64,000 nt of DNA from IMG/VR virus record IMGVR_UViG_3300044858_003749; one strand, given 5' to 3'. Origin of the DNA: a virus (Duplodnaviria; Heunggongvirae; Uroviricota; Caudoviricetes). The position numbers and the translations under genes were made by a program. This document shows, piece by piece, positions 5,736 through 62,236 of this stretch; the first letter of the stretch is position 1, and each line of letters starts with the position of its first letter. The notes beneath the pieces were generated by a model. That model did not search any database, was not told the origin of the DNA, and saw nothing but the letters and a program-made list of their open reading frames with translations.

Positions 5736-6698
5736 ATGTTTTCTGACTTTAAACAACTTAAAAAATCATCTTCAATCGGCTCATTAACTCAAAAACTTAT
5801 TGAGCATTCCGAGAAACTATCAAAGGCTTCATCTACAAAAGACGATAGAATTTTTAGCGTAGATCGTGACAAAAAAACCGGAACTGGCTTTGCTATTGTA
5901 CGGTTTATGCCACCACCGCCTAATGAGCCTAGCTCATGTGTTAAAATCGTAAATCACAATTTTAAGTATAACGGCAAGTATTTAAACGAGAATTGCCCAA
6001 ATCACACTCCCGGAATCACCAAGAGAGATTGTCCTATTTGTGATTCTAATCGTGAACTTTGGGCAACAGAAGTTGAAACCAATAAGCAAATCGCATCACT
6101 AAGAAAGCTGCGAACTTCTTATTATACTAACGTCTATATTGTTAAGAACCCAGCAAATCCAGAATTGGAAGGTCGGGTTATGCTTTATCGCTTCGGTGTT
6201 AAACTTTTTGAAAAAATTGAAAACGCCCGCAAGGAAAAGTATGTTGGGGATACCAATGTAATTGAACCGTATGATCTTTTTGACAGCGGTGCTAATTTCC
6301 GAATTGTTGTAAAAACTCAGGTTGATTCTAAGAACAACAAAGAATTTCCTGAATATTCGGAATCCGGCTTTGAATCAAAAGGTGCTCTCTTTTCTGATGA
6401 CACAAGACTAGAAGCCGTCTGGCGCCAGTGTCATTCTCTCCAGGAACTTATTTCACCAGAGAAGTTCCGCTCTTATGAAGATATTGAAAAAAGTCTTCGT
6501 CGGGTTATGGGAGTTTCTGCTAATTCTGTTCAGGCGCAAGAGGCTGAACTGGAAGAAGTTGCACAGGCGGTTAATGACGACTCCATTATGAGTGAACTAG
6601 AGGCTCATTATAAGAGCAAAAACAATCCGCTAGATGAGGAAAATTCCTCGCTAGAAGATGCTCTTAAGGCCTTTGAAGAACTAGAGATGGACGACTAA
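5736..6698 (+). CDS. gp32: single-stranded DNA-binding protein (T4 gp32-like)
   Basis: N-terminal 'FAIVRFMPPP', a zinc-ligand pattern 'CPNH...DCPICDS', and an acidic C-terminal tail 'EELEMDD'. The size of 320 aa fits. Confidence 0.85.
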   Translation: MFSDFKQLKKSSSIGSLTQKLIEHSEKLSKASSTKDDRIFSVDRDKKTGTGFAIVRFMPPPPNEPSSCVKIVNHNFKYNGKYLNENCPNHTPGITKRDCPICDSNRELWATEVETNKQIASLRKLRTSYYTNVYIVKNPANPELEGRVMLYRFGVKLFEKIENARKEKYVGDTNVIEPYDLFDSGANFRIVVKTQVDSKNNKEFPEYSESGFESKGALFSDDTRLEAVWRQCHSLQELISPEKFRSYEDIEKSLRRVMGVSANSVQAQEAELEEVAQAVNDDSIMSELEAHYKSKNNPLDEENSSLEDALKAFEELEMDD

Positions 6699-44421: not shown

Positions 44422-44821
44422 AAATAAATTTTGGGACCTTGAATCTAATCTAAATGAGATTGAATCCAATTATTTGGATCTTGAAGAGCAGTTAGCACAT
44501 TTTGTTACAGATTCGCTTCTACTTATTGAAAACTTAGATCTTGAATCTTTGGCAATACCAATATTCGCTCAGAGTCTTATTATTCGTAATTACCGAGATT
44601 ACAAATATCAAGATTTATTAAAAAAATTACTGGTATCTAAAAATTTCACACCAGGCCTAATATACCGCACAAGAGAAATTTTTACAGAAAAAGAGTTTGA
44701 ACCTTTTTTACAATACTTACTACAAAATCCAAATTTAGACCAGTATGCAAGAGAATACTACACCAACCTAAAAAAATCTTATGACCGAAGACTTACTAGG
44801 GAACAAACTAAAAAAGCTTGA
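44402..44821 (+). CDS. hypothetical protein
   Basis: 139-aa ORF. Confidence 0.35.
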   Translation: METHEIENKFWDLESNLNEIESNYLDLEEQLAHFVTDSLLLIENLDLESLAIPIFAQSLIIRNYRDYKYQDLLKKLLVSKNFTPGLIYRTREIFTEKEFEPFLQYLLQNPNLDQYAREYYTNLKKSYDRRLTREQTKKA

Positions 44822-45551
44822 GCAACTGGAGGCTGGGCGTTATGCCGATCCTTTTCTTCCACTCATGGCCAGAATTGATGGTAAGTGCTTCAGTAATTTC
44901 ACTAGAAGTCTAAAACGTCCTTATGACGAGAGATTTATTCGGCTTATGATAGCAACGACAAAATATCTTGTTGAAGAAAGTGAGGCTATTTTAGGTTATT
45001 GCCAATCTGATGAAATTACTCTTTATTGGTACTTAGATAAAGAAAACTTTTCCAATAGAGAATTCTGGTTTCGTGGTAAGTTTCAGAAATTAACTTCTGT
45101 CTTAGCCTCAACTGCTAGCTCTTATTTTTGTGGTAATCTCGCACATTATTTACCAGAAAAGACTGGTAACTATCCAACCTTTGATACAAGAGTTTGGAGT
45201 GTTCCCGATTTGGAATGCGTTTATGAGAATTTTCTATGGCGGTTTAAGGATGCGAGAAAAAATTCTGTATCCATGTATGCAAGACATTTCTTTTCACCAA
45301 ACCAGCTTTTTAAAAAGTCCTGTGAAGAAATGAAAGAAATGTTAGCGGTTATTCGTAGGCCGTGGGAAGAATTACCTAAATTCTTTACCGATGGGACGTA
45401 TATTAAAAGACAAAAATTCTTATTGTCTCCTTATGATCCTAGATGGAATGACGTTCCCTCTCAATACCGGCCAACAAAACCTGTTGAGCGTACATTGGTT
45501 TCCGTTTGGGAACCAGAGACAACGGTATCACTTGATTGGTTCACTTATTAA
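44781..45551 (+). CDS. Thg1-like tRNA(His) guanylyltransferase / 3'-5' nucleotidyltransferase
   Basis: Motif 'LMARIDGKCFSNFT...KRPYDERF...YCQSDEITLYW' matches the Thg1 pattern (vRiDG.nF, kP.DeR, sDEis). Confidence 0.65.
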   Translation: MTEDLLGNKLKKLEQLEAGRYADPFLPLMARIDGKCFSNFTRSLKRPYDERFIRLMIATTKYLVEESEAILGYCQSDEITLYWYLDKENFSNREFWFRGKFQKLTSVLASTASSYFCGNLAHYLPEKTGNYPTFDTRVWSVPDLECVYENFLWRFKDARKNSVSMYARHFFSPNQLFKKSCEEMKEMLAVIRRPWEELPKFFTDGTYIKRQKFLLSPYDPRWNDVPSQYRPTKPVERTLVSVWEPETTVSLDWFTY

Positions 45552-48734: not shown

Positions 48735-48848
48735 GAGCGAGTAGCTCAGGGGTAGAGCAACGTAATAACAAATCTCGTTTGAGATTTTAACAGCAATCAA
48801 AACCGCATGTTAAGCCGTAGGCCCCAGGTTCAAATCCTGGCTCGCTCA
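48735..48848 (+). tRNA. tRNA-like gene with ~40-nt insertion in the anticodon region (class II-like; anticodon unresolved)
   Basis: Acceptor GAGCGAG/CTCGCTC, D-arm GCTC-AGGGGTA-GAGC, T-arm CCAGG-TTCAAAT-CCTGG. It is 114 nt long. A stem AACGT/ATGTT flanks a 43-nt loop plus insertion. A possible short variable hairpin is GCC-GTA-GGC. Confidence 0.45.
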
Positions 48849-48958: not shown

Positions 48959-49032
48959 CAGCGGGCGAGTGTAACGGTAGTCACGTCGGGCTCATAACCC
49001 GGAGGAATATGGGTTCAATTCCCAGGTCCGCC
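48959..49032 (+). tRNA. tRNA-Met (CAT), initiator-like
   Basis: Anticodon loop CTCATAA. Three consecutive G:C pairs close the anticodon stem (GGG/CCC). There is a 1:72 A·C mismatch. The T-loop is TTCAATT. Confidence 0.6.
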
Positions 49033-49098
49033 ATCAGATGATTCAGCAATTTCAAAACTTCTTATTGGTTAGAAAAACAAAAATCATCTAGTCTTATT

Positions 49099-51320: not shown

Positions 51321-51838
51321 CTGAACAAGAGCAAAAACTATTAAACAAGTTTCTTTCCTCTATTGAAGAAGACGAAAAGTTCTTCAAAGAGATTATGAAC
51401 CGAACAGATGAAGACGCAAGACTTCTTCAATGGATTGTCAATAATAATATCAATCCTTACGGTGTTTTTCCTTATTATATTGCTGGCAGTCTTTCCGAAT
51501 TACAATCCTTTGTTGCCATCTACATTAAGATGACGTATCAAAGAAAGCACTGTGAAATTAATTACGTCAACGTTGAAAGAACAAGTAGCTCACATGATCA
51601 TGTTGATAACCTAGGACCGAGAGTAGTTTTTGTTGGTAAATGGGAAGATGATTTTCATGCGCTAGTTAAAAAAGAATTAAATCTACCCGACGATGAGCTA
51701 CCATGGGAATCATACACTTATGACTTTGACATCTTAGAAAACGTAGACGCCTTTATTGAAACATACAATAGGGTTGAAGATTATCACAAGAATCGTTATG
51801 AAGAAAACAGTAAGCTTGCGGATAGGTGGTTATCATGA
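51317..51838 (+). CDS. hypothetical protein
   Basis: 173-aa ORF. Confidence 0.35.
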
Positions 51839-53313
51839 ATGAAGAAACATCACAATTTTTATCAGCCAGGTTGGATAAGATTTCAGAACTACAGAAAATA
51901 GGGCAAGTTGCATATGCTAATTCTTTTCACCCTACAATTAAAGCATTAGAATTACATAAGAATTATTTTAATCTGGAAAATGGTTCTGAATGTGATGATA
52001 ATGTTGTTATAGCTGGTCGTATTATCGCAAGAAGAGTATTCGGTAAGTTGTCATTTTTTACTCTTTCCGATGACAGTGGAACAATTCAGCTTTATATTGA
52101 GAACGCCATCGTTGGTTCCGATATTGTTTCCTTAACCGATGTCGGCGACTGGATCGGCGCCACCGGCACCCTGCGGCGCACCGACCGGGGCGAGCTTTCG
52201 GTCAAGGTGCGCGACTGGACGATGCTCAGCAAGTCGCTTCAGCCCCTGCCCGACAAGTGGCATGGCCTGGCGGACGTGGAGAAGCGCTACCGGCAGCGCT
52301 ATCTCGATCTGATCGTCTCCCCCCACACCCGCGAAACTTTCCGGCGACGTGCCATTTTGATTAGAACTATTCGCAATTGGCTTGACTCGCGGGAATTTTT
52401 GGAGATTGAAACTCCTATTCTACAAACCGAAGTTGGCGGAGCCGAGGCCAAACCTTTCTCAACATATCATAACACTCTAGATCTATCATTAACTCTAAGA
52501 ATTGCGACCGAGTTGCACCTTAAGAGGATGATTGTTGGTGGTTTTGAAAGAGTTTATGAGTTGGGTCGTATATTTCGTAATGAAGGTCTAAGCACCCGCC
52601 ATAATCCAGAGTTTACAACCGTTGAGATTTATCAGGCATATGCAGATTATAATGATATGATGATTTTAACAGAAAATCTCATATCTACTTGCGCAGAGAC
52701 AGTTTGTGGTTCTACTGTAATAGTTTATCAAGATGAAAAAATTGATCTAACTCCTCCTTGGAATAAATGTACAATGCACGAATTGGTTTTTGAGCATACT
52801 GGTCTTGATTTTCATCAATTTTCGTCAAGAACCGATGCCGCTAATGCTATGGAAACTATTGGATTGGTTGTTCCTGATAGTGCCGATTCCGTTGGTCGGT
52901 TATTAAACGAAGCCTTTGAACAAAGAGTTGAAAAACAGCTCATTCAACCGACTTTTGTTTTAGATTATCCTGTTGAAATTTCTCCACTGGCCCGTTCTCA
53001 TAGAGAAAAACCGGAATTGGTTGAAAGATTTGAATTATTCATCTTTGGTCGTGAAATTGCCAATGCCTTTAGCGAACTCACCGATCCTTTAGAACAGAGA
53101 AAAAGATTAGAAGAACAACAAACCCGCCGCAATAATGGCGATCAAGAGGCTCACACTATTGATGAAGACTTTTTAAACGCACTTGAAATTGGAATGCCGC
53201 CAACCGGAGGACTAGGTATTGGTATAGACAGATTGACAATGTTACTTACGGATAGTCCGTCTATTCGTGATGTTATCGCTTTTCCTTTAATGCGCCCAGA
53301 GGACAAAACATGA
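51826..53313 (+). CDS. lysS: lysyl-tRNA synthetase (class II)
   Basis: Class II motifs '[23 protein letters not shown]' and '[15 protein letters not shown]'. N-terminal OB anticodon-binding region. Contains the GC-rich patch at 52136-52353. Confidence 0.85.
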
Positions 53314-53954: not shown

Positions 53955-54181
53955 TTATGAGAGCAACAGTTTATAAGGCAGTCTTGTGTATTGTTGATCA
54001 TGAAGATATGCCAGAAGAATCCGTTATTCATCTTTTAGAAAATGTTCGTTATCTTTATCCGAACATTATTAGTCTAGAATCACGAGAGATTGAAGAGTGG
54101 AATGATGAACATCCATTAAACAAAAAAGACACACATACTCAAGAATTTGGAAGATTATTCAATGGCATTCATTCAAAATAA
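53951..54181 (+). CDS. hypothetical small protein
   Basis: 76-aa ORF. Confidence 0.3.
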   Translation: MIMRATVYKAVLCIVDHEDMPEESVIHLLENVRYLYPNIISLESREIEEWNDEHPLNKKDTHTQEFGRLFNGIHSK

Positions 54182-54617
54182 AAACATTCTAACGCTTCAT
54201 GATAACGAAATCTTCGTCTTTGGAAGCAACCGCGCTGGCATTCATGGAGCAGGAGCCGCTCTGCACGCCGCAAGATACTTTAAGGCTGTCCACGGGGTCG
54301 GTGAGGGCCTTACAGGGTTCTCCTACGCACTACCAACAAAGCGAGCCAACTTTACCATCTGCTCTCTGGATGAGATTTCTTGGTCATTAAAATGTTTAAA
54401 AGAGTGTGCTAAAGAAAATCATATGTTCACTTTCTTCTTAACGAGAATCGGGCAGGGTTATGCAGGAATTCCAGAGAAAGATATTAAGAATCTGGTTATA
54501 AAAACCGATTTGCCTGATAATGTTCTTCCTTGGTGGATATGGGAGAATGCTTTTGGAACTTTCACAAAGGAAAATATTAACGTAAATTTGGATATTTTGG
54601 GTGTGACAGTTGATTAA
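54147..54617 (+). CDS. hypothetical protein with glycine-rich Rossmann-like motif
   Basis: 'IFVFGSNRAGIHGAGAALHAARYF...GFSYALPTK' looks like a nucleotide-binding loop. It sits within the NAD module. Confidence 0.4.
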   Translation: MEDYSMAFIQNKNILTLHDNEIFVFGSNRAGIHGAGAALHAARYFKAVHGVGEGLTGFSYALPTKRANFTICSLDEISWSLKCLKECAKENHMFTFFLTRIGQGYAGIPEKDIKNLVIKTDLPDNVLPWWIWENAFGTFTKENINVNLDILGVTVD

Positions 54618-55701: not shown

Positions 55702-56760
55702 ATGAAAAAATACGATGCGGTGGTTTTCATCGGCAGGTTTCAACCTTTCCATAACGCTCATTTTGATATTATCAAAAAAGCTTATGAGCTAACTGATTAT
55801 GTAATTCTTATCGCGGGTTCTCAGTATCAACCACCTAGCTATAAGAATCCATTTCAGGCTTTAACTTTTGACGGTTATTTTGATTCAATTGGAAAAACCA
55901 TTGATAATTATCTTAGAGTTAACTTTGAGGATTATTATGACGAAGACCGTAACTATGAGTTCTCGTTTTGTTTTCAACGAGATATTTACGGTGATAATCT
56001 CTGGTGCAAAAGTGTACAGGAAAAAGTATCAGAATTATTCTTAGGTCAAGAAGCTGAAATAGCCATTATTGGTTGTAATAAGGATGAAAGTTCTTATTAC
56101 TTAAATATGTTCCCTCAGTGGGATCTTATTGAGGTTCCTCTGGATCAAAACCTTAGTGCTACACAGATCAGAGAACTTTATTTCGTTGAAGAACCAAATA
56201 TGAGTTTTCTTCAAGGTGTTGTATCGTCTGAGGTTTTTAATTATCTTGACGAACACAAAAATACCGAATGGCACAATAATATCGTAAACGAACGAAATTT
56301 TATTGAAAAATACAAAGCCCAATATGCTTCTTTCCCATATCCACCAACATTCGTTACTGTAGATTCTGTAGTATTTCAATCCGGTCATGTTCTCGTTGTT
56401 CGGAGAAATGCTTATCCTGGTAAAGGTCTTATTGCTCTTCCTGGTGGATTCTTAGACGCTAATAGTGATGCCTCTTTGGAAGATGCTATGATTAGAGAAC
56501 TGAGAGAGGAAACAGGGCTTAAAGTGCCAACTCCGGTTCTCAAGGGATCTATTAAAGATGTTAAAGTTTTTGATTCTCTTTATAGAAGCTCTCGTGGACG
56601 GACTATTACTCATGCTCATAACATTGTATTGTCTGATGGAGAACTACCTAGAGTCAAAGGTGATTCTGATGCTGATAAGGCTTTCTGGTTACCATTCAGC
56701 CAACTTAAATCAGAGCAATTTTTTGAAGACCATTATCAAATTATCAATTATTTTCTATGA
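55702..56760 (+). CDS. natV: bifunctional NMN adenylyltransferase / Nudix hydrolase (NatV-type)
   Basis: N-terminal nucleotidyltransferase 'GRFQPFHNAH' (HxGH-type). C-terminal Nudix box 'GGFLDANSDASLEDAMIRELREETGL'. Confidence 0.8.
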   Translation: MKKYDAVVFIGRFQPFHNAHFDIIKKAYELTDYVILIAGSQYQPPSYKNPFQALTFDGYFDSIGKTIDNYLRVNFEDYYDEDRNYEFSFCFQRDIYGDNLWCKSVQEKVSELFLGQEAEIAIIGCNKDESSYYLNMFPQWDLIEVPLDQNLSATQIRELYFVEEPNMSFLQGVVSSEVFNYLDEHKNTEWHNNIVNERNFIEKYKAQYASFPYPPTFVTVDSVVFQSGHVLVVRRNAYPGKGLIALPGGFLDANSDASLEDAMIRELREETGLKVPTPVLKGSIKDVKVFDSLYRSSRGRTITHAHNIVLSDGELPRVKGDSDADKAFWLPFSQLKSEQFFEDHYQIINYFL

Positions 56761-57501: not shown

Positions 57502-57524
57502 AATTCAACGATAGACGTTGAATT
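57502..57524 (+). promoter_or_regulatory. perfect 9-bp hairpin upstream of nadV
   Basis: AATTCAACG, loop ATAGA, CGTTGAATT. It lies 30 nt upstream of the nadV RBS. Confidence 0.3.
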
Positions 57525-57553
57525 TTATCCACTATCATTTTAAGGAGTTTAAA

Positions 57554-59869
57554 ATGGACAACATTATTCTTTCTGCTGATTCTTACAAATACTCTCAGTT
57601 CAATCAATATCCTCCACAAACAGAGGGTGTTTATTCTTACATTGAGAGTCGCGGTGGTGGAGAAGAAGTTCTCTTTATGGGTCTTCAGATCTATCTTAAG
57701 GAATATCTATCTCGTCCCATTCGCATGGAAGATATTGACGAAGCAGAGGAACTTATTCTCGCTCACGGAGAACCTTTTTATCGTGGCGGGTGGGAATACA
57801 TCGTTAAGAAGCATGGTGGTTATCTACCCGTAAGAGTAAAAGCCGTTCCAGAAGGAATGGTGATTCCAACGAAAAATGTTTTGGTTACGATTGAGAATAC
57901 AGATCCAAACTGCTATTGGCTGACAAGTTTTCTAGAGACAAGTCTTCTTCGGCATGTTTGGTTTCCAACAACGGTTGCGACGAATTCTTATAACATCAAG
58001 AAGCTTATTTTGAGTTACTTGATTCGTAATGGAGATCCCAATACGATTGATTATAAGCTACATGACTTTGCATTTCGAGGTGTGTCTTCTTCTGAATCTG
58101 CCGGAATCGGTGGTATTGCACACCTTGTTAATTTCAAGGGAACTGATACAGTTGCCGCTCTTCGTTATGGTAGAAAATATTATAACGAAAAAATGGCAGG
58201 CTACTCGGTCCCAGCTTCAGAACATGGTGGAATCACGAGTTGGGGTAAAGAAAACGAAGTAGCGGCATATAGAAATATGCTTAATCATTATGCTAAGCCT
58301 GGTGCTATCGTCGCTTGTGTAAGTGACAGTTATGACATTTATAACGCTTGCGATAAGCTCTGGGGTGAGGAGTTAAAGGATGAAGTTATTGCTTCTGGTG
58401 CTACTCTGACGGTCAGGCCGGATTGTTATGATGATCAAACTAAGATTTTAACTCCTAGTGGGTGGAAATTATTTTGTGAATTATCGGAAAACGATCTGGT
58501 TGCCCAGGTTAATCCCGATAAAACTTATGAATTTGTCAAACCTCTTGAAATTATTAATGAATATTATGAAGGAGAAATGTATCAAATTCGGGATTTTCAC
58601 GGAAAAATTGATCTCTTAGTCACTCCTAATCATAGATTAGTGGTTGTAGATAGAGCTGGTGAACTTATAGTAAAAGAAGCCAAAGATTATAACCCAAAAA
58701 ATTTGAATTACCGAAAACTTCGTTCGGCTAAGGCCAAAACTTTTGGGAAAAATTTAACCTGGCACGAAAGACTATTAATCGCATTACAGGCTGATGGTAC
58801 TATTAGAAAAACGACCTCCAATAAGACGAGTATTGAATTCAATTTTCAAAAAGAGCGAAAGCATAATAGATTATTAAATATTCTTAATAATTTAAATTAT
58901 GAGTATAGTGTCTTTTATAGTGAGTCTAGGGAGGGCCAATCAATTATAACCGTGTCAATACCATTGGGTGAAATTGTTTCTAAAACATTTGATTGGGTTG
59001 ATATTTCAAACTTGGATAGTCAATGGTGTGAGCAATTTATAGATGAATTAAAACATTGGGATTCTTCTATTAGAAATAGTGGAAGATTTAAATATGATAC
59101 TACAGTTAAATTTAACATAGACGTAGTAGAATATATTGCCATTTCTTCAGGGAAAGGGATTTTAATTTCCGTCGCCGAAGATAATAGACAATCTTATTAT
59201 TCTGATGTTTATACTGCACATATATTGGATAATCCTTATTCTGGTGGTCAGACCATAACCAAAACAAAAGTTAATTATAAAGGAAGTGTACATTGTGTTA
59301 AAGTTCCGAGTGGTATGGTTTTAGTTAAAAGACACCGGGGAGTTTCTGTTTCTGGAAATTCTGGAGAACCTGTAGAAGTGAATCTTAAGTGTGCTCAAAT
59401 TCTTGAAAGTCATTATGGATCTACCGTAAACTCTAAAGGATTTAAGGTACTCAATAACGTCAAGCTCATTCAGGGTGATGGTGTTAATTATGAAACTGTA
59501 GATCGGGTTCTTCATGTACTTGAATCTAACGGATATAGTAGTGATAACATTGGTTTCGGAATGGGTGGCGCCCTGCTCCAGGCTGTTACTCGTGATGATT
59601 ACAAATTTGCCATGAAGTGTAGTGCGGTTAATGTGGCTGGAAATTGGAGGGATGTTTACAAGGATCCTATTACAGATCCAGGTAAAACATCTAAGAAAGG
59701 TCGTCTGAATCTGATTCATACCGATAATGGTTACGAAACGGTTCCTGAACGCCCATGGAATAAAGATGTTCTTGAGGTTGTTTATGAGAATGGAGAACTT
59801 CTAAAGGATTATACTTTGGAAGAAATCCGAGTGAACGCAAATCGGTGTATTCATAATTACTTCGCATAA
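57554..59869 (+). CDS. nadV: nicotinamide phosphoribosyltransferase (NadV/NAMPT) interrupted by an intein
   Basis: RBS AAGGAG. The exteins are continuous across 'ATLTVRPD | SGEPVEV', the conserved NAMPT RPDSG site. The 312-aa insert is described in the next entry. Confidence 0.8.
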   Translation: MDNIILSADSYKYSQFNQYPPQTEGVYSYIESRGGGEEVLFMGLQIYLKEYLSRPIRMEDIDEAEELILAHGEPFYRGGWEYIVKKHGGYLPVRVKAVPEGMVIPTKNVLVTIENTDPNCYWLTSFLETSLLRHVWFPTTVATNSYNIKKLILSYLIRNGDPNTIDYKLHDFAFRGVSSSESAGIGGIAHLVNFKGTDTVAALRYGRKYYNEKMAGYSVPASEHGGITSWGKENEVAAYRNMLNHYAKPGAIVACVSDSYDIYNACDKLWGEELKDEVIASGATLTVRPDCYDDQTKILTPSGWKLFCELSENDLVAQVNPDKTYEFVKPLEIINEYYEGEMYQIRDFHGKIDLLVTPNHRLVVVDRAGELIVKEAKDYNPKNLNYRKLRSAKAKTFGKNLTWHERLLIALQADGTIRKTTSNKTSIEFNFQKERKHNRLLNILNNLNYEYSVFYSESREGQSIITVSIPLGEIVSKTFDWVDISNLDSQWCEQFIDELKHWDSSIRNSGRFKYDTTVKFNIDVVEYIAISSGKGILISVAEDNRQSYYSDVYTAHILDNPYSGGQTITKTKVNYKGSVHCVKVPSGMVLVKRHRGVSVSGNSGEPVEVNLKCAQILESHYGSTVNSKGFKVLNNVKLIQGDGVNYETVDRVLHVLESNGYSSDNIGFGMGGALLQAVTRDDYKFAMKCSAVNVAGNWRDVYKDPITDPGKTSKKGRLNLIHTDNGYETVPERPWNKDVLEVVYENGELLKDYTLEEIRVNANRCIHNYFA
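58424..59359 (+). mobile_element. intein (312 aa) with LAGLIDADG-like homing endonuclease domain inside nadV
   Basis: Starts with Cys ('CYDDQTKILT') and has block B 'LVTPNH'. It ends '...SVSGN' with a +1 Ser. An internal 'LLIALQADGTI' is LAGLIDADG-like. Confidence 0.6.
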
Positions 59870-60886: not shown

Positions 60887-62236
60887 ATGTCATTGTTTCT
60901 AACAGATACTCTAACAAAAGAAAAAAGGGAATTCGTTCCACTAGAAAATAACACTGTCAACATATACTCCTGTGGTGTGACCGTTTATGATCTAACACAC
61001 TTTGGTCATGCTCGCAGTTTTATAGTTTGGGATGTTCTTCGTAGACACCTAAAATGGCTTGGATATGCTGTTAAATTTGTTCAGAACTATACCGATATTG
61101 ATGATAAAATTATTGCAAAAGCCAATGAACAGAATCAAACAATCAAAGAAATAACAGAAAAGTACATTAACGAGTATGAGAAAGATATGACCTTTCTTAA
61201 TGTTATGTTGCCGGATAAGATGCCTAGAGCCACAGATCATTTATCCGAAATTCGCAGTATGATTAAAACTCTAGAATCTAAAGGTGCTGCATATACTTTA
61301 GATGGTAGTGTTTATTTTTCTGTTAATACTCATGAGAATTATGGTAGATTATCTGGAAGAATTTTAGACAATCAAAAAGATAACTCAGGTGAATTTCTTA
61401 AAAAGAATTCTTTTGATTTCGCATTATGGAAAGCTTCTAAACCAGGTGAACCGAGTTATTCTTCTTATTGGGGAAATGGTAGACCGGGATGGCATATAGA
61501 ATGTTCGGCGATGATCTGGAAGGAATTTGGAAAGACTATTGATATCCATCTTGGGGGTTCTGATCTGATTTTTCCACATCATGAGAATGAAATAGCCCAA
61601 ACTGAAGTTGCAACAGAAAATCAATTATCTCGTTGGTGGTTACATTCTGGAATGGTAATGGTTGATGGTAAAAAAATGAGCAAGTCTCTAGGAAACTTTA
61701 CAACCATTCGGTCCTTACAAGAATCAGGATTTAGTCCAATGGCCATAAGGCTTTTCGTATTACAGGGGCATTATCGCAAACCTCTTGATTTTACGGAAAA
61801 TGCTTTAAAAATGGCAACGAATTCCTGGAATAAATTAAATGAAGTTTTGTTGTTAAAATCTTCAAAAGAAACTACCGAAATTGATTTTGATGATAAGCTA
61901 AGATCTTATCACAATAATTTTATAGATGCTCTTAACGACGATCTCAATACTTCTCTTGCAATCTCAGTTCTTTTTGTTTTGGTTAAAGAAATAAGAGTGA
62001 ATAACTCAGACTCTTATATTTTACTTTTGTGCGAATTATCAGCAATTCTTGGTCTTTTTGGAGAGCAAAAGTCCAATATAAGCGAATCAGAAATTTTAGA
62101 ACAAATTGAATTAAGAAATTCAGCAAGAAAAGAAAAGAATTTTACTCTTGCGGATGAGATCAGAGAAAAATTATTAACTTCTGGTGTTAAACTTGAAGAT
62201 ACAAAAGACGGAACTAGTTTTAATTTTATTGTGTGA
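60887..62236 (+). CDS. cysS: cysteinyl-tRNA synthetase (class I)
   Basis: HIGH motif 'HFGHARSF' and KMSKS motif 'KMSKSLGN'. Zinc ligands 'CGVTVYD' and 'HIECSAM'. Confidence 0.85.
   Translation: MSLFLTDTLTKEKREFVPLENNTVNIYSCGVTVYDLTHFGHARSFIVWDVLRRHLKWLGYAVKFVQNYTDIDDKIIAKANEQNQTIKEITEKYINEYEKDMTFLNVMLPDKMPRATDHLSEIRSMIKTLESKGAAYTLDGSVYFSVNTHENYGRLSGRILDNQKDNSGEFLKKNSFDFALWKASKPGEPSYSSYWGNGRPGWHIECSAMIWKEFGKTIDIHLGGSDLIFPHHENEIAQTEVATENQLSRWWLHSGMVMVDGKKMSKSLGNFTTIRSLQESGFSPMAIRLFVLQGHYRKPLDFTENALKMATNSWNKLNEVLLLKSSKETTEIDFDDKLRSYHNNFIDALNDDLNTSLAISVLFVLVKEIRVNNSDSYILLLCELSAILGLFGEQKSNISESEILEQIELRNSARKEKNFTLADEIREKLLTSGVKLEDTKDGTSFNFIV

Follow-up and report, generated by a model that had tools for sequence, protein, structure and literature searches.

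A GC-rich patch in a phage lysyl-tRNA synthetase gene, very probably left by recurrent replacement with host sequence

Introduction

Huge phages carry translation genes. One such gene, lysS, encoding a class II lysyl-tRNA synthetase (LysRS), lies in a 64,000-nucleotide stretch of DNA from a virus of the class Caudoviricetes (IMG/VR virus record IMGVR_UViG_3300044858_003749); we call the whole of this stretch the window. The gene is AT-rich except for one patch of about 220 bp. An initial annotation, made from the sequence alone, ascribed the patch to recombination or gene conversion with lysS of a high-GC donor, and named an assembly chimera as the alternative.

Where did the patch come from, and does it exist in a real phage molecule? 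Here we compare the window's lysS with copies from related phages and with the lysS genes of picocyanobacteria. We conclude that the patch very probably arose by short-tract homologous replacement (gene conversion) of phage lysS by host lysS, and that such replacement was recurrent.

Results

A GC-rich patch inside an AT-rich gene

To judge from its domains, the 492-residue product of lysS is a full-length class II LysRS, with an OB fold followed by the class II D, K and N catalytic core. Pfam places tRNA_anti-codon (PF01336) at residues 57-131 (E = 1.9e-15) and tRNA-synt_2 (PF00152) at residues 148-486 (E = 2.7e-90). Table 1 gives the gene from its ATG; an alternative in-frame start, GTG, lies at 51826. 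The phage protein is ~70% identical in amino acid sequence to the LysRS of Synechococcus and Cyanobium.

When the window was scanned for maximal segments by log-odds, the top GC-rich segment was 52136-52353, with a score of 45.6, at exactly the coordinates and the composition (about 68% GC) that the initial annotation had given. The runner-up scores 13.9, and the mean for the window is 36.3% GC. In a 100-bp profile the GC content rises from 0.35-0.42 to 0.63-0.70 across the patch and then falls back. The switch is sharper still in GC3, the GC content of third codon positions, which is 0.92 in codons 101-150 and 0.86 in codons 151-164, against 0.23 and 0.27 in the two flanks. The abrupt change of composition first reported is therefore real.

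The patch corresponds to codons 101-173 of lysS, and the reading frame runs through it undisturbed; the peptide quoted in the initial annotation is correct and continuous with the rest of the protein. That annotation had placed the peptide in the anticodon-binding domain and linker. Pfam agrees and extends the assignment: the patch runs from the last part of the OB-fold anticodon-binding domain through the linker into the start of the catalytic domain at residue 148. When the 73 residues of the patch were redrawn with the codon usage of the flanks, their GC content was 44.0 +/- 1.9% and never exceeded 50.7% in 5000 draws; the observed value is 67.6%. Because the resampled GC falls so far below that observed, the local break cannot be put down to a protein rich in Gly, Arg, Ala or Pro. 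A 64-residue open reading frame (ORF) on the minus strand at 52132-52326 we regard as a by-product of the GC richness.

The second-highest GC segment of the window lies elsewhere, at 54230-54347 (118 bp, 61% GC), inside an ORF at 54147/54162-54617 (+ strand). We considered it as a second conversion tract and rejected it: the ORF encodes a phage non-structural protein of the A1S_2505 family, and 0 of its 459 matches are cyanobacterial homologues. Its GC comes mostly from a conserved core rich in Gly and Ala, with a GC3 of 0.4-0.7. In the same scan the gene for CysRS, the other aminoacyl-tRNA synthetase of the window, has no GC patch.

Table 1. Coordinates of lysS, of the segments distinguished within it and of neighbouring translation and NAD genes; L038 is the metagenome-assembled genome (MAG) whose lysS matches the patch best
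Feature	Coordinates	Strand	Basis
lysS, class II lysyl-tRNA synthetase, 492 aa, AT-rich outside the patch	51835..53313 (ATG)	+	ORF list, Pfam
Indel-bearing variable loop, codons 92-100, directly 5' of the patch	52108..52134	+	Codon alignments
Host-identical core, 201/203 bases as in L038	52135..52337	+	Alignment to lysS of MAG L038
GC-rich patch	52136..52353	+	Maximal-segment scan, 218 bp, 67.9% GC
Sub-tract common to close relatives, codons 104-150, 99.3% identity to L038	52144..52284	+	Alignments
Window-lineage-specific sub-tract, codons 151-167 including His164, 51/51 bases as in L038	52285..52335	+	Alignments
3' transition, codons 168-173 (ACT TTC CGG CGA CGT GCC)	52336..52353	+	Alignments
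Thg1-like tRNA-His guanylyltransferase	44781-45551		
tRNA-Met	48960-49033		
tRNA-Pro	55560		
NMNAT-Nudix fusion	55702-56760		
CysRS	60887-62236		

The patch matches the lysS of a freshwater picocyanobacterium

Among 119 homologues, the best amino acid identity to picocyanobacterial LysRS is ~45% in the N-terminal flank, 97-99% in the patch (for a subset) and ~75% in the C-terminal flank. Patch and flanks were compared at the nucleotide level with 80 lysS loci from GTDB genomes, mostly of freshwater picocyanobacteria. The best donor in this set is L038, a freshwater Synechococcaceae MAG (CANEWU010000073.1), which is 97.2% identical to the window over codons 102-173, 99% over codons 101-167 and 99.3% over codons 104-150. 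Second comes L011, a Lake Loclat MAG. For comparison, the median identity to the window's patch among 69 picocyanobacterial lysS genes is 84%.

The match to L038 is nearly unbroken. Exact runs of 96 nt (52143-52238) and 98 nt (52240-52337) make up almost all of the host-identical core, whose two mismatches are at 52142 (Val103 GTC, where the host has Ala GCC) and 52239 (Leu135 CTT, where the host has CTG). No exact run to a host exceeds 13 nt outside the patch, where nucleotide identity to host genes is 46-62%. Synonymous third positions give the same picture with another host gene (L001): 82% of them match in the patch and ~22% in the flanks. The high-GC lysS donor that had been postulated is thus borne out, and its lineage can be named.

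The direction of transfer, from host to phage, is clear, because the base composition of the patch is that of the host genome, and the L038 segment is normal among host sequences. The whole phage gene is a distant relative of picocyanobacterial LysRS, so that the donor is its homologue in the host lineage of the phage. That host is likely to be the freshwater, high-GC Synechococcaceae/Cyanobium lineage of which L038 and L011 are representatives.

The last codons of the patch, although GC-rich like the rest of it, are harder to place. Codons 168-172 (ACT TTC CGG CGA CGT) carry four synonymous differences both from L038 and from the sister phage L093. Their combination is absent from 81 host genes, in which ACT and CGA are rare codons, and the three Arg codons among them vary independently among several phage lineages and hosts. 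These codons may have come from a host or phage donor that is missing from the sample, or they may form a local run of synonymously hypervariable Arg codons.

Related phages carry the patch at the same place

Related phage lysS genes were retrieved from JGI, ENA and Logan assemblies via cluster members and exact-protein look-ups, and three more copies (L094-L096) via the upstream neighbour protein. By amino acid identity to the window, clade 1a (98-99%) comprises L002, L007 and L093 from ENA and L008 and L089 from JGI; clade 1b (95%) comprises L003 and L004 from Logan; and clade 2 (78%) comprises L005 from ENA and L006 and L090-L092 from Logan.

In every relative, lysS lies in an AT-rich phage context (flank GC 0.30-0.375) and GC is raised at the same codons; the assemblies come from many samples and three pipelines. 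A uniformly GC-rich lysS in related phages had been named at the outset as a finding that would speak against a tract, and none of the relatives has one. The ORF is intact in every full-length phage copy retrieved. The ORFs around lysS are phage-specific, and they are the same in those relatives with enough flanking sequence.

The window's own version of the patch recurs in independent assemblies. L094, an 11-kb JGI contig from sample 3300042556, has the complete window-type patch, including the lineage-specific block, at 100% identity. L095, a Logan contig from SRR27428892, has the window-type patch at 100% identity up to the end of the contig at codon 153, and L096, a JGI contig from sample 3300042301, agrees with the shared part and ends at codon 135, before the window-specific block.

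The copies also differ from one another in a telling way. Single-nucleotide polymorphisms (SNPs) in the patch are mostly third-position changes from G/C to A/T that are rare in the hosts or absent from them; several of them, such as AGT110, CTA135 and CTT145, occur in none of the 81 host genes. Because the patch SNPs are mostly AT-directed and rare in or absent from hosts, the tract is evolving inside phage genomes.

At least three nested events

Sharp boundaries had been claimed for the patch. The claim holds at the 5' edge and fails at the 3' edge. All clade-1 copies turn host-like at one point, codons 101-104, right after a variable loop (codons 92-100) in which host L001 has ten extra codons, clade-2 phages have seven, and the sequences are unrelated. 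This boundary is fixed because homology to host lysS stops at the indel-bearing loop. The 3' edge differs among lineages, lying at codon 150, 167 or 173.

Between these edges the phages fall into three states. The first is seen in clade 1a, L094 and the window, all of which are identical to the host over codons 104-150 apart from 0-4 SNPs, mostly phage-specific. Clade-1a copies outside the window's lineage then interrupt the host sequence with a 14-codon island of AT type, ending in Asn164, at codons 151-164 (CGT TAT CGT CAA CGA TAC CTT GAT TTA ATC GTC TCT CCT AAC), and regain host identity at codons 165-173. L093 and L089 are each one synonymous site away from this island, which is shared by L003, the outgroup from clade 1b; all clade-1 phages except those of the window's lineage have kept it. 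The second state is that of the window and L094, and of L095 as far as it goes, which have host sequence through codons 151-167 in place of the island. The third is that of L003, L004 and clade 2, which have a partly decayed patch with a GC3 of ~0.7 and a best host identity of ~83%. In L003 the differences, tallied by eye, are mostly from G/C to A/T. An older, inherited tract is indicated by two codons that L003 has in common with clade 2: ACT112, which a single one of 69 picocyanobacterial hosts uses, and AGG114, which none of the 69 does.

Divergence between phages is three to four times higher in the patch than elsewhere, and it comes in blocks. The window differs from L003 at 43 of 219 positions in the patch and at 71 of 1101 elsewhere (Fisher p = 9e-9), and from L002 at 20 of 219 and 22 of 1101 (p = 2e-6). 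For the latter pair, codons 151-164 account for 12 differences in 42 positions, against 30 in 1278 elsewhere (p = 1e-9).

In what order did the blocks arrive? Outside the patch the window nests among the island-bearing phages: its nearest relative is L093 (1.1% divergence), L007 and L008 form a sister pair, and L003 is the outgroup. Because the window nests within the phages that have the AT island, the island is ancestral and the window's block at codons 151-167 is derived and later. The initial annotation spoke of a single tract. A conversion tract it is, but to explain the data three or more nested events are needed at this site: an old, decaying tract, a fresh tract and an overwrite in the window's lineage. 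The fresh tract over codons 104-150 would date from the base of clade 1a.

Phylogeny of the patch and of the rest of the gene

Bootstrapped neighbour-joining trees were built from two partitions, codons 104-150 of the patch and codon positions 1 and 2 of the remaining gene. The patch tree places clade-1a phages together with L038 and L011 in an exclusive clade (82% bootstrap); monophyly of the phages receives 0%, and the older patches also group with hosts (L001, L011, L015 and L038). With the remaining gene, by contrast, support for a monophyletic phage group is 100%, and the phages branch outside the whole set of 67 picocyanobacteria.

An RNA or antisense element could also hold a stretch of nucleotides constant. 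Between hosts, however, synonymous conservation is not raised in the patch (0.69-0.70, against 0.67-0.71 elsewhere). Between phage clades, synonymous third-position identity in the patch (~55%) does not exceed that of the flanks (50-69%). Rfam has no family in lysS, fold z-scores on the two strands of the patch are +0.8 and +0.6 and give no fold signal, and no promoter-like site was found on the minus (antisense) strand downstream of the patch. On the Rfam, fold, promoter and host synonymous-constraint results we reject such an element.

The phage and its neighbourhood

The source looks like an uncultured freshwater jumbo cyanophage with no close isolate. A close relative, L002, lies on a scaffold of 244 kb (ENA ERZ28594530 scaffold_3). 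Besides lysS, the window encodes two tail-lysozyme proteins, a tail-collar protein, a helicase, NAMPT, an NMNAT-Nudix protein, Thg1, CysRS, a DNA-ligase OB-domain protein and tRNAs; it contains neither capsid nor terminase genes. The helicase matches T4-like cyanomyoviruses only (419 records, ~35% identity), and therefore fits a picocyanobacterial host.

Searches of phage collections yielded no near relative. INPHARED has no near DNA match to lysS or to the patch; among the lysS matches listed none exceeds ~53% identity, and one further record falls in the 60-80% band. In IMG/VR, neither the LysRS protein nor an alignment of phage LysRS sequences nor a 39-mer of the patch retrieved relatives.

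Three features of the surroundings deserve mention in their own right. About 110 nt upstream of tRNA-Met, Rfam finds a tRNA match at 48735-48848 (+ strand, 50.7 bits, 114 nt) that is absent from the ARAGORN calls; it has a 53-nt stretch in the anticodon-loop region where the model has 11 nt, and may be an intron-containing or otherwise interrupted tRNA. The NAMPT/NAPRTase ORF at 57518-59869 (+ strand, 783 residues) has its NAPRTase domain in two stretches, and residues 344-443 give a weak, sub-threshold Pfam match to an intein splicing domain (E = 0.013); this ORF may hold an intein or another insertion of ~300 residues. Finally, L002 has an HNH endonuclease ORF at 5849-6328, between the lysS neighbourhood and CysRS. 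Gene content 3' of lysS differs among close relatives, which suggests local indel turnover downstream of the gene.

Discussion

How could host sequence have entered the same site repeatedly? On our reading, the phage would have captured lysS, a gene related to that of picocyanobacterial LysRS, long ago, and the gene would then have drifted to phage composition (GC3 ~0.25). In infected cells host DNA would recombine with phage lysS, through a phage or host recombinase, and would have done so more than once. An old tract persists in decayed form in L003, L004 and clade 2; a fresh one, over codons 104-150 and 165-173, is carried by the window's close relatives; and the latest event, in the window's own lineage, overwrote the leftover AT island at codons 151-167. 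Each tract would leave long exact matches to the host and would thereby favour a further exchange in the same place. Earlier tracts did leave exact host matches of 47-96 nt on both sides of the AT island, and these would have been an ideal substrate for the window-specific replacement. A 5' edge fixed where homology is lost and a 3' edge that varies both fit short-tract recombination, and the discontinuous tract of the close relatives is as expected from patchy repair of a heteroduplex.

Several observations weigh against this reading. Residues ~221-262 are equally conserved in the protein and have no tract, so protein conservation alone fails to explain where the tract lies; recurrence at the patch, and not there, would be due to the feedback just described. 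Codons 168-172 of the window fit neither host nor sister phage. The immediate donor in the window-specific event could be another phage with a host-derived tract. A window-specific exact 33-mer is absent from the JGI metagenome_contigs collection, as is the window's own contig. Both L095 and L096 end inside the patch; host-shared k-mers, it follows, tangle and fragment assembly graphs there. The supporting assemblies may come from one lake system and perhaps from one phage population. Support for the mosaic in real molecules is indirect and comes from independent assemblies of related phages.

The strongest rival is recombination between phages, in which codons 151-172 came from a co-infecting related phage with its own host-derived tract. 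We think this unlikely, though worth serious consideration. Exchange between phages is the commonest type for psbA and psbD (Sullivan et al., PMC1484495), and the four synonymous differences in codons 168-172, a combination found in none of the 81 host genes, would fit an origin in such a phage. None of the sampled phages carries that sequence, however, and the perfect match of codons 151-167 to L038 means that the donor phage must have gained the block very recently. The ultimate origin of the block in a host would be unchanged.

A second possibility is a single event: one ancient tract, or what is left of the original capture, whose host-like state would be due to selection on its nucleotides as an RNA structure, a regulatory site or an antisense to host lysS mRNA. 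It would account for the fact that all phage lineages, including clade 2, which elsewhere has ~72% nucleotide identity, keep a GC3 of ~0.7 at codons 101-150 between flanks of 0.21-0.27, and the derived codons shared by L003 and clade 2 do point to one old inherited tract. Yet AT-biased decay of a once-fresh tract would bring GC3 in the older lineages to roughly the same value of 0.7. Selection on nucleotides should have kept the patch alike between clades and between close relatives, and neither is seen: synonymous identity between clades is no higher there than in the flanks, and close relatives diverge most there, block by block. The clade-1a patch is 99% identical to one host lineage at a place where hosts differ from one another by ~16%, the hosts themselves show no excess synonymous conservation, and the patch has no Rfam family, fold signal or antisense promoter. 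We regard this explanation as very unlikely.

The chimera named in the initial annotation, in which host lysS reads were threaded into a phage contig so that the patch, or codons 151-167 of it, is in no real molecule, fares worst and is very improbable. It draws on the contigs that break in the patch and on the missing 33-mer, and on the exact runs of 96, 47 and 29 nt that L093 shares with L038, which at k <=29 would make codons 151-164 a phage/host bubble. It is rejected for the patch as a whole: the patch over codons 104-150 begins at one 5' edge in all assemblies of related phages, which come from independent samples and three pipelines, the copies bear lineage-specific AT-directed SNPs, the diverged lineages show decayed intermediates, and a pre-conversion sequence like that of L003 shares at most 16 nt with a host. 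For the window-specific part a chimera is unlikely, since its junctions are reproduced at 100% by the JGI contig L094 and in part by the Logan contig L095. Moreover, since codons 168-172 of the window are unique, a window phage that still had the AT island would overlap with the host by only ~14 nt at the 3' junction, too little for k >=21.

Given replacement by host lysS, has the repeated overwriting been of use to the phage? Relative to L003, the residues reset to the host state are S110T, E127D, R129T and N164H. It is conceivable, though rather improbable on what these sequences tell us, that overwriting is adaptive and, through copies of the last part of the anticodon-binding domain, the linker and the first helix of the catalytic domain, keeps LysRS matched to the tRNA-Lys or the LysRS subunit of the current host. 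If so, it would be a mechanism by which a viral translation gene tracks its host at the level of a module. Phage lysS could also act as a shuttle of lysS segments between Cyanobium lineages.

Whatever its effect on the protein, the tract is informative. Because it is 99% identical to one host MAG lineage, it allows a species-level host assignment for an uncultured phage, and such a link is far more specific than composition or tRNA matching. Nested tracts amount to a natural time series, usable for estimating rates of amelioration and lengths of conversion tracts in wild phages. A caution also follows: patches of this kind break metagenome assemblies, and they put phage contigs at risk of being mis-binned or flagged as contaminated.

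How does the lysS tract compare with known systems? Patchy %G+C within the psbA and psbD genes of cyanophages has been attributed to intragenic recombination between host and phage (Sullivan et al. 2006, PLoS Biol, PMC1484495; PMC3900582). Zeidner et al. (2005), as cited in PMC1484495, likewise derived it from host-phage exchange. The resemblance is close: in both cases a host-derived gene in a low-GC cyanophage with a higher-GC host of Synechococcus type has patchy %G+C, and the evidence for psbA and psbD, recombination tests and segment-specific phylogeny, is of the kind used here. At the level of sequence, the lysS patch has every property by which host-to-phage intragenic recombination tracts of the psbA/psbD type are recognized. 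The differences are equally plain. The gene encodes an aminoacyl-tRNA synthetase, a component of translation and not of a photosystem, and its carrier looks like a jumbo phage from freshwater, uncultured and apparently only distantly related to T4-like cyanomyoviruses. The contrast is also sharper, with a 203-bp block 99% identical to a named MAG in a gene otherwise at 46-62%, and both the host-to-phage direction and the order of three nested events can be read from the alignments.

Jumbo and huge phages with aminoacyl-tRNA synthetases offer a second comparison. In the present phage, likewise, LysRS and CysRS are encoded alongside tRNAs, Thg1 and genes for NAD salvage. Reports on those phages concern gene content, whereas the lysS case is one of ongoing conversion by a host allele; a limited literature search found no report of such conversion of a phage aminoacyl-tRNA synthetase gene. 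Among cultured phages, cyanophages B3 and B23 (MN695334, MN695335) are freshwater myoviruses of ~244 kb and 34.8% GC with Synechococcus-Cyanobium hosts (PMC7171214), the same size, composition and host group as we infer for the lysS phage. As relatives they find no support in sequence: helicase and tail-protein matches in the phage collection reach at most ~35%, and the lysS DNA has no near match. Intragenic recombination between host and phage is already known for psbA and psbD; lysS adds another member, and extends the process to a core translation gene, to freshwater and to a jumbo lineage without a cultured relative.

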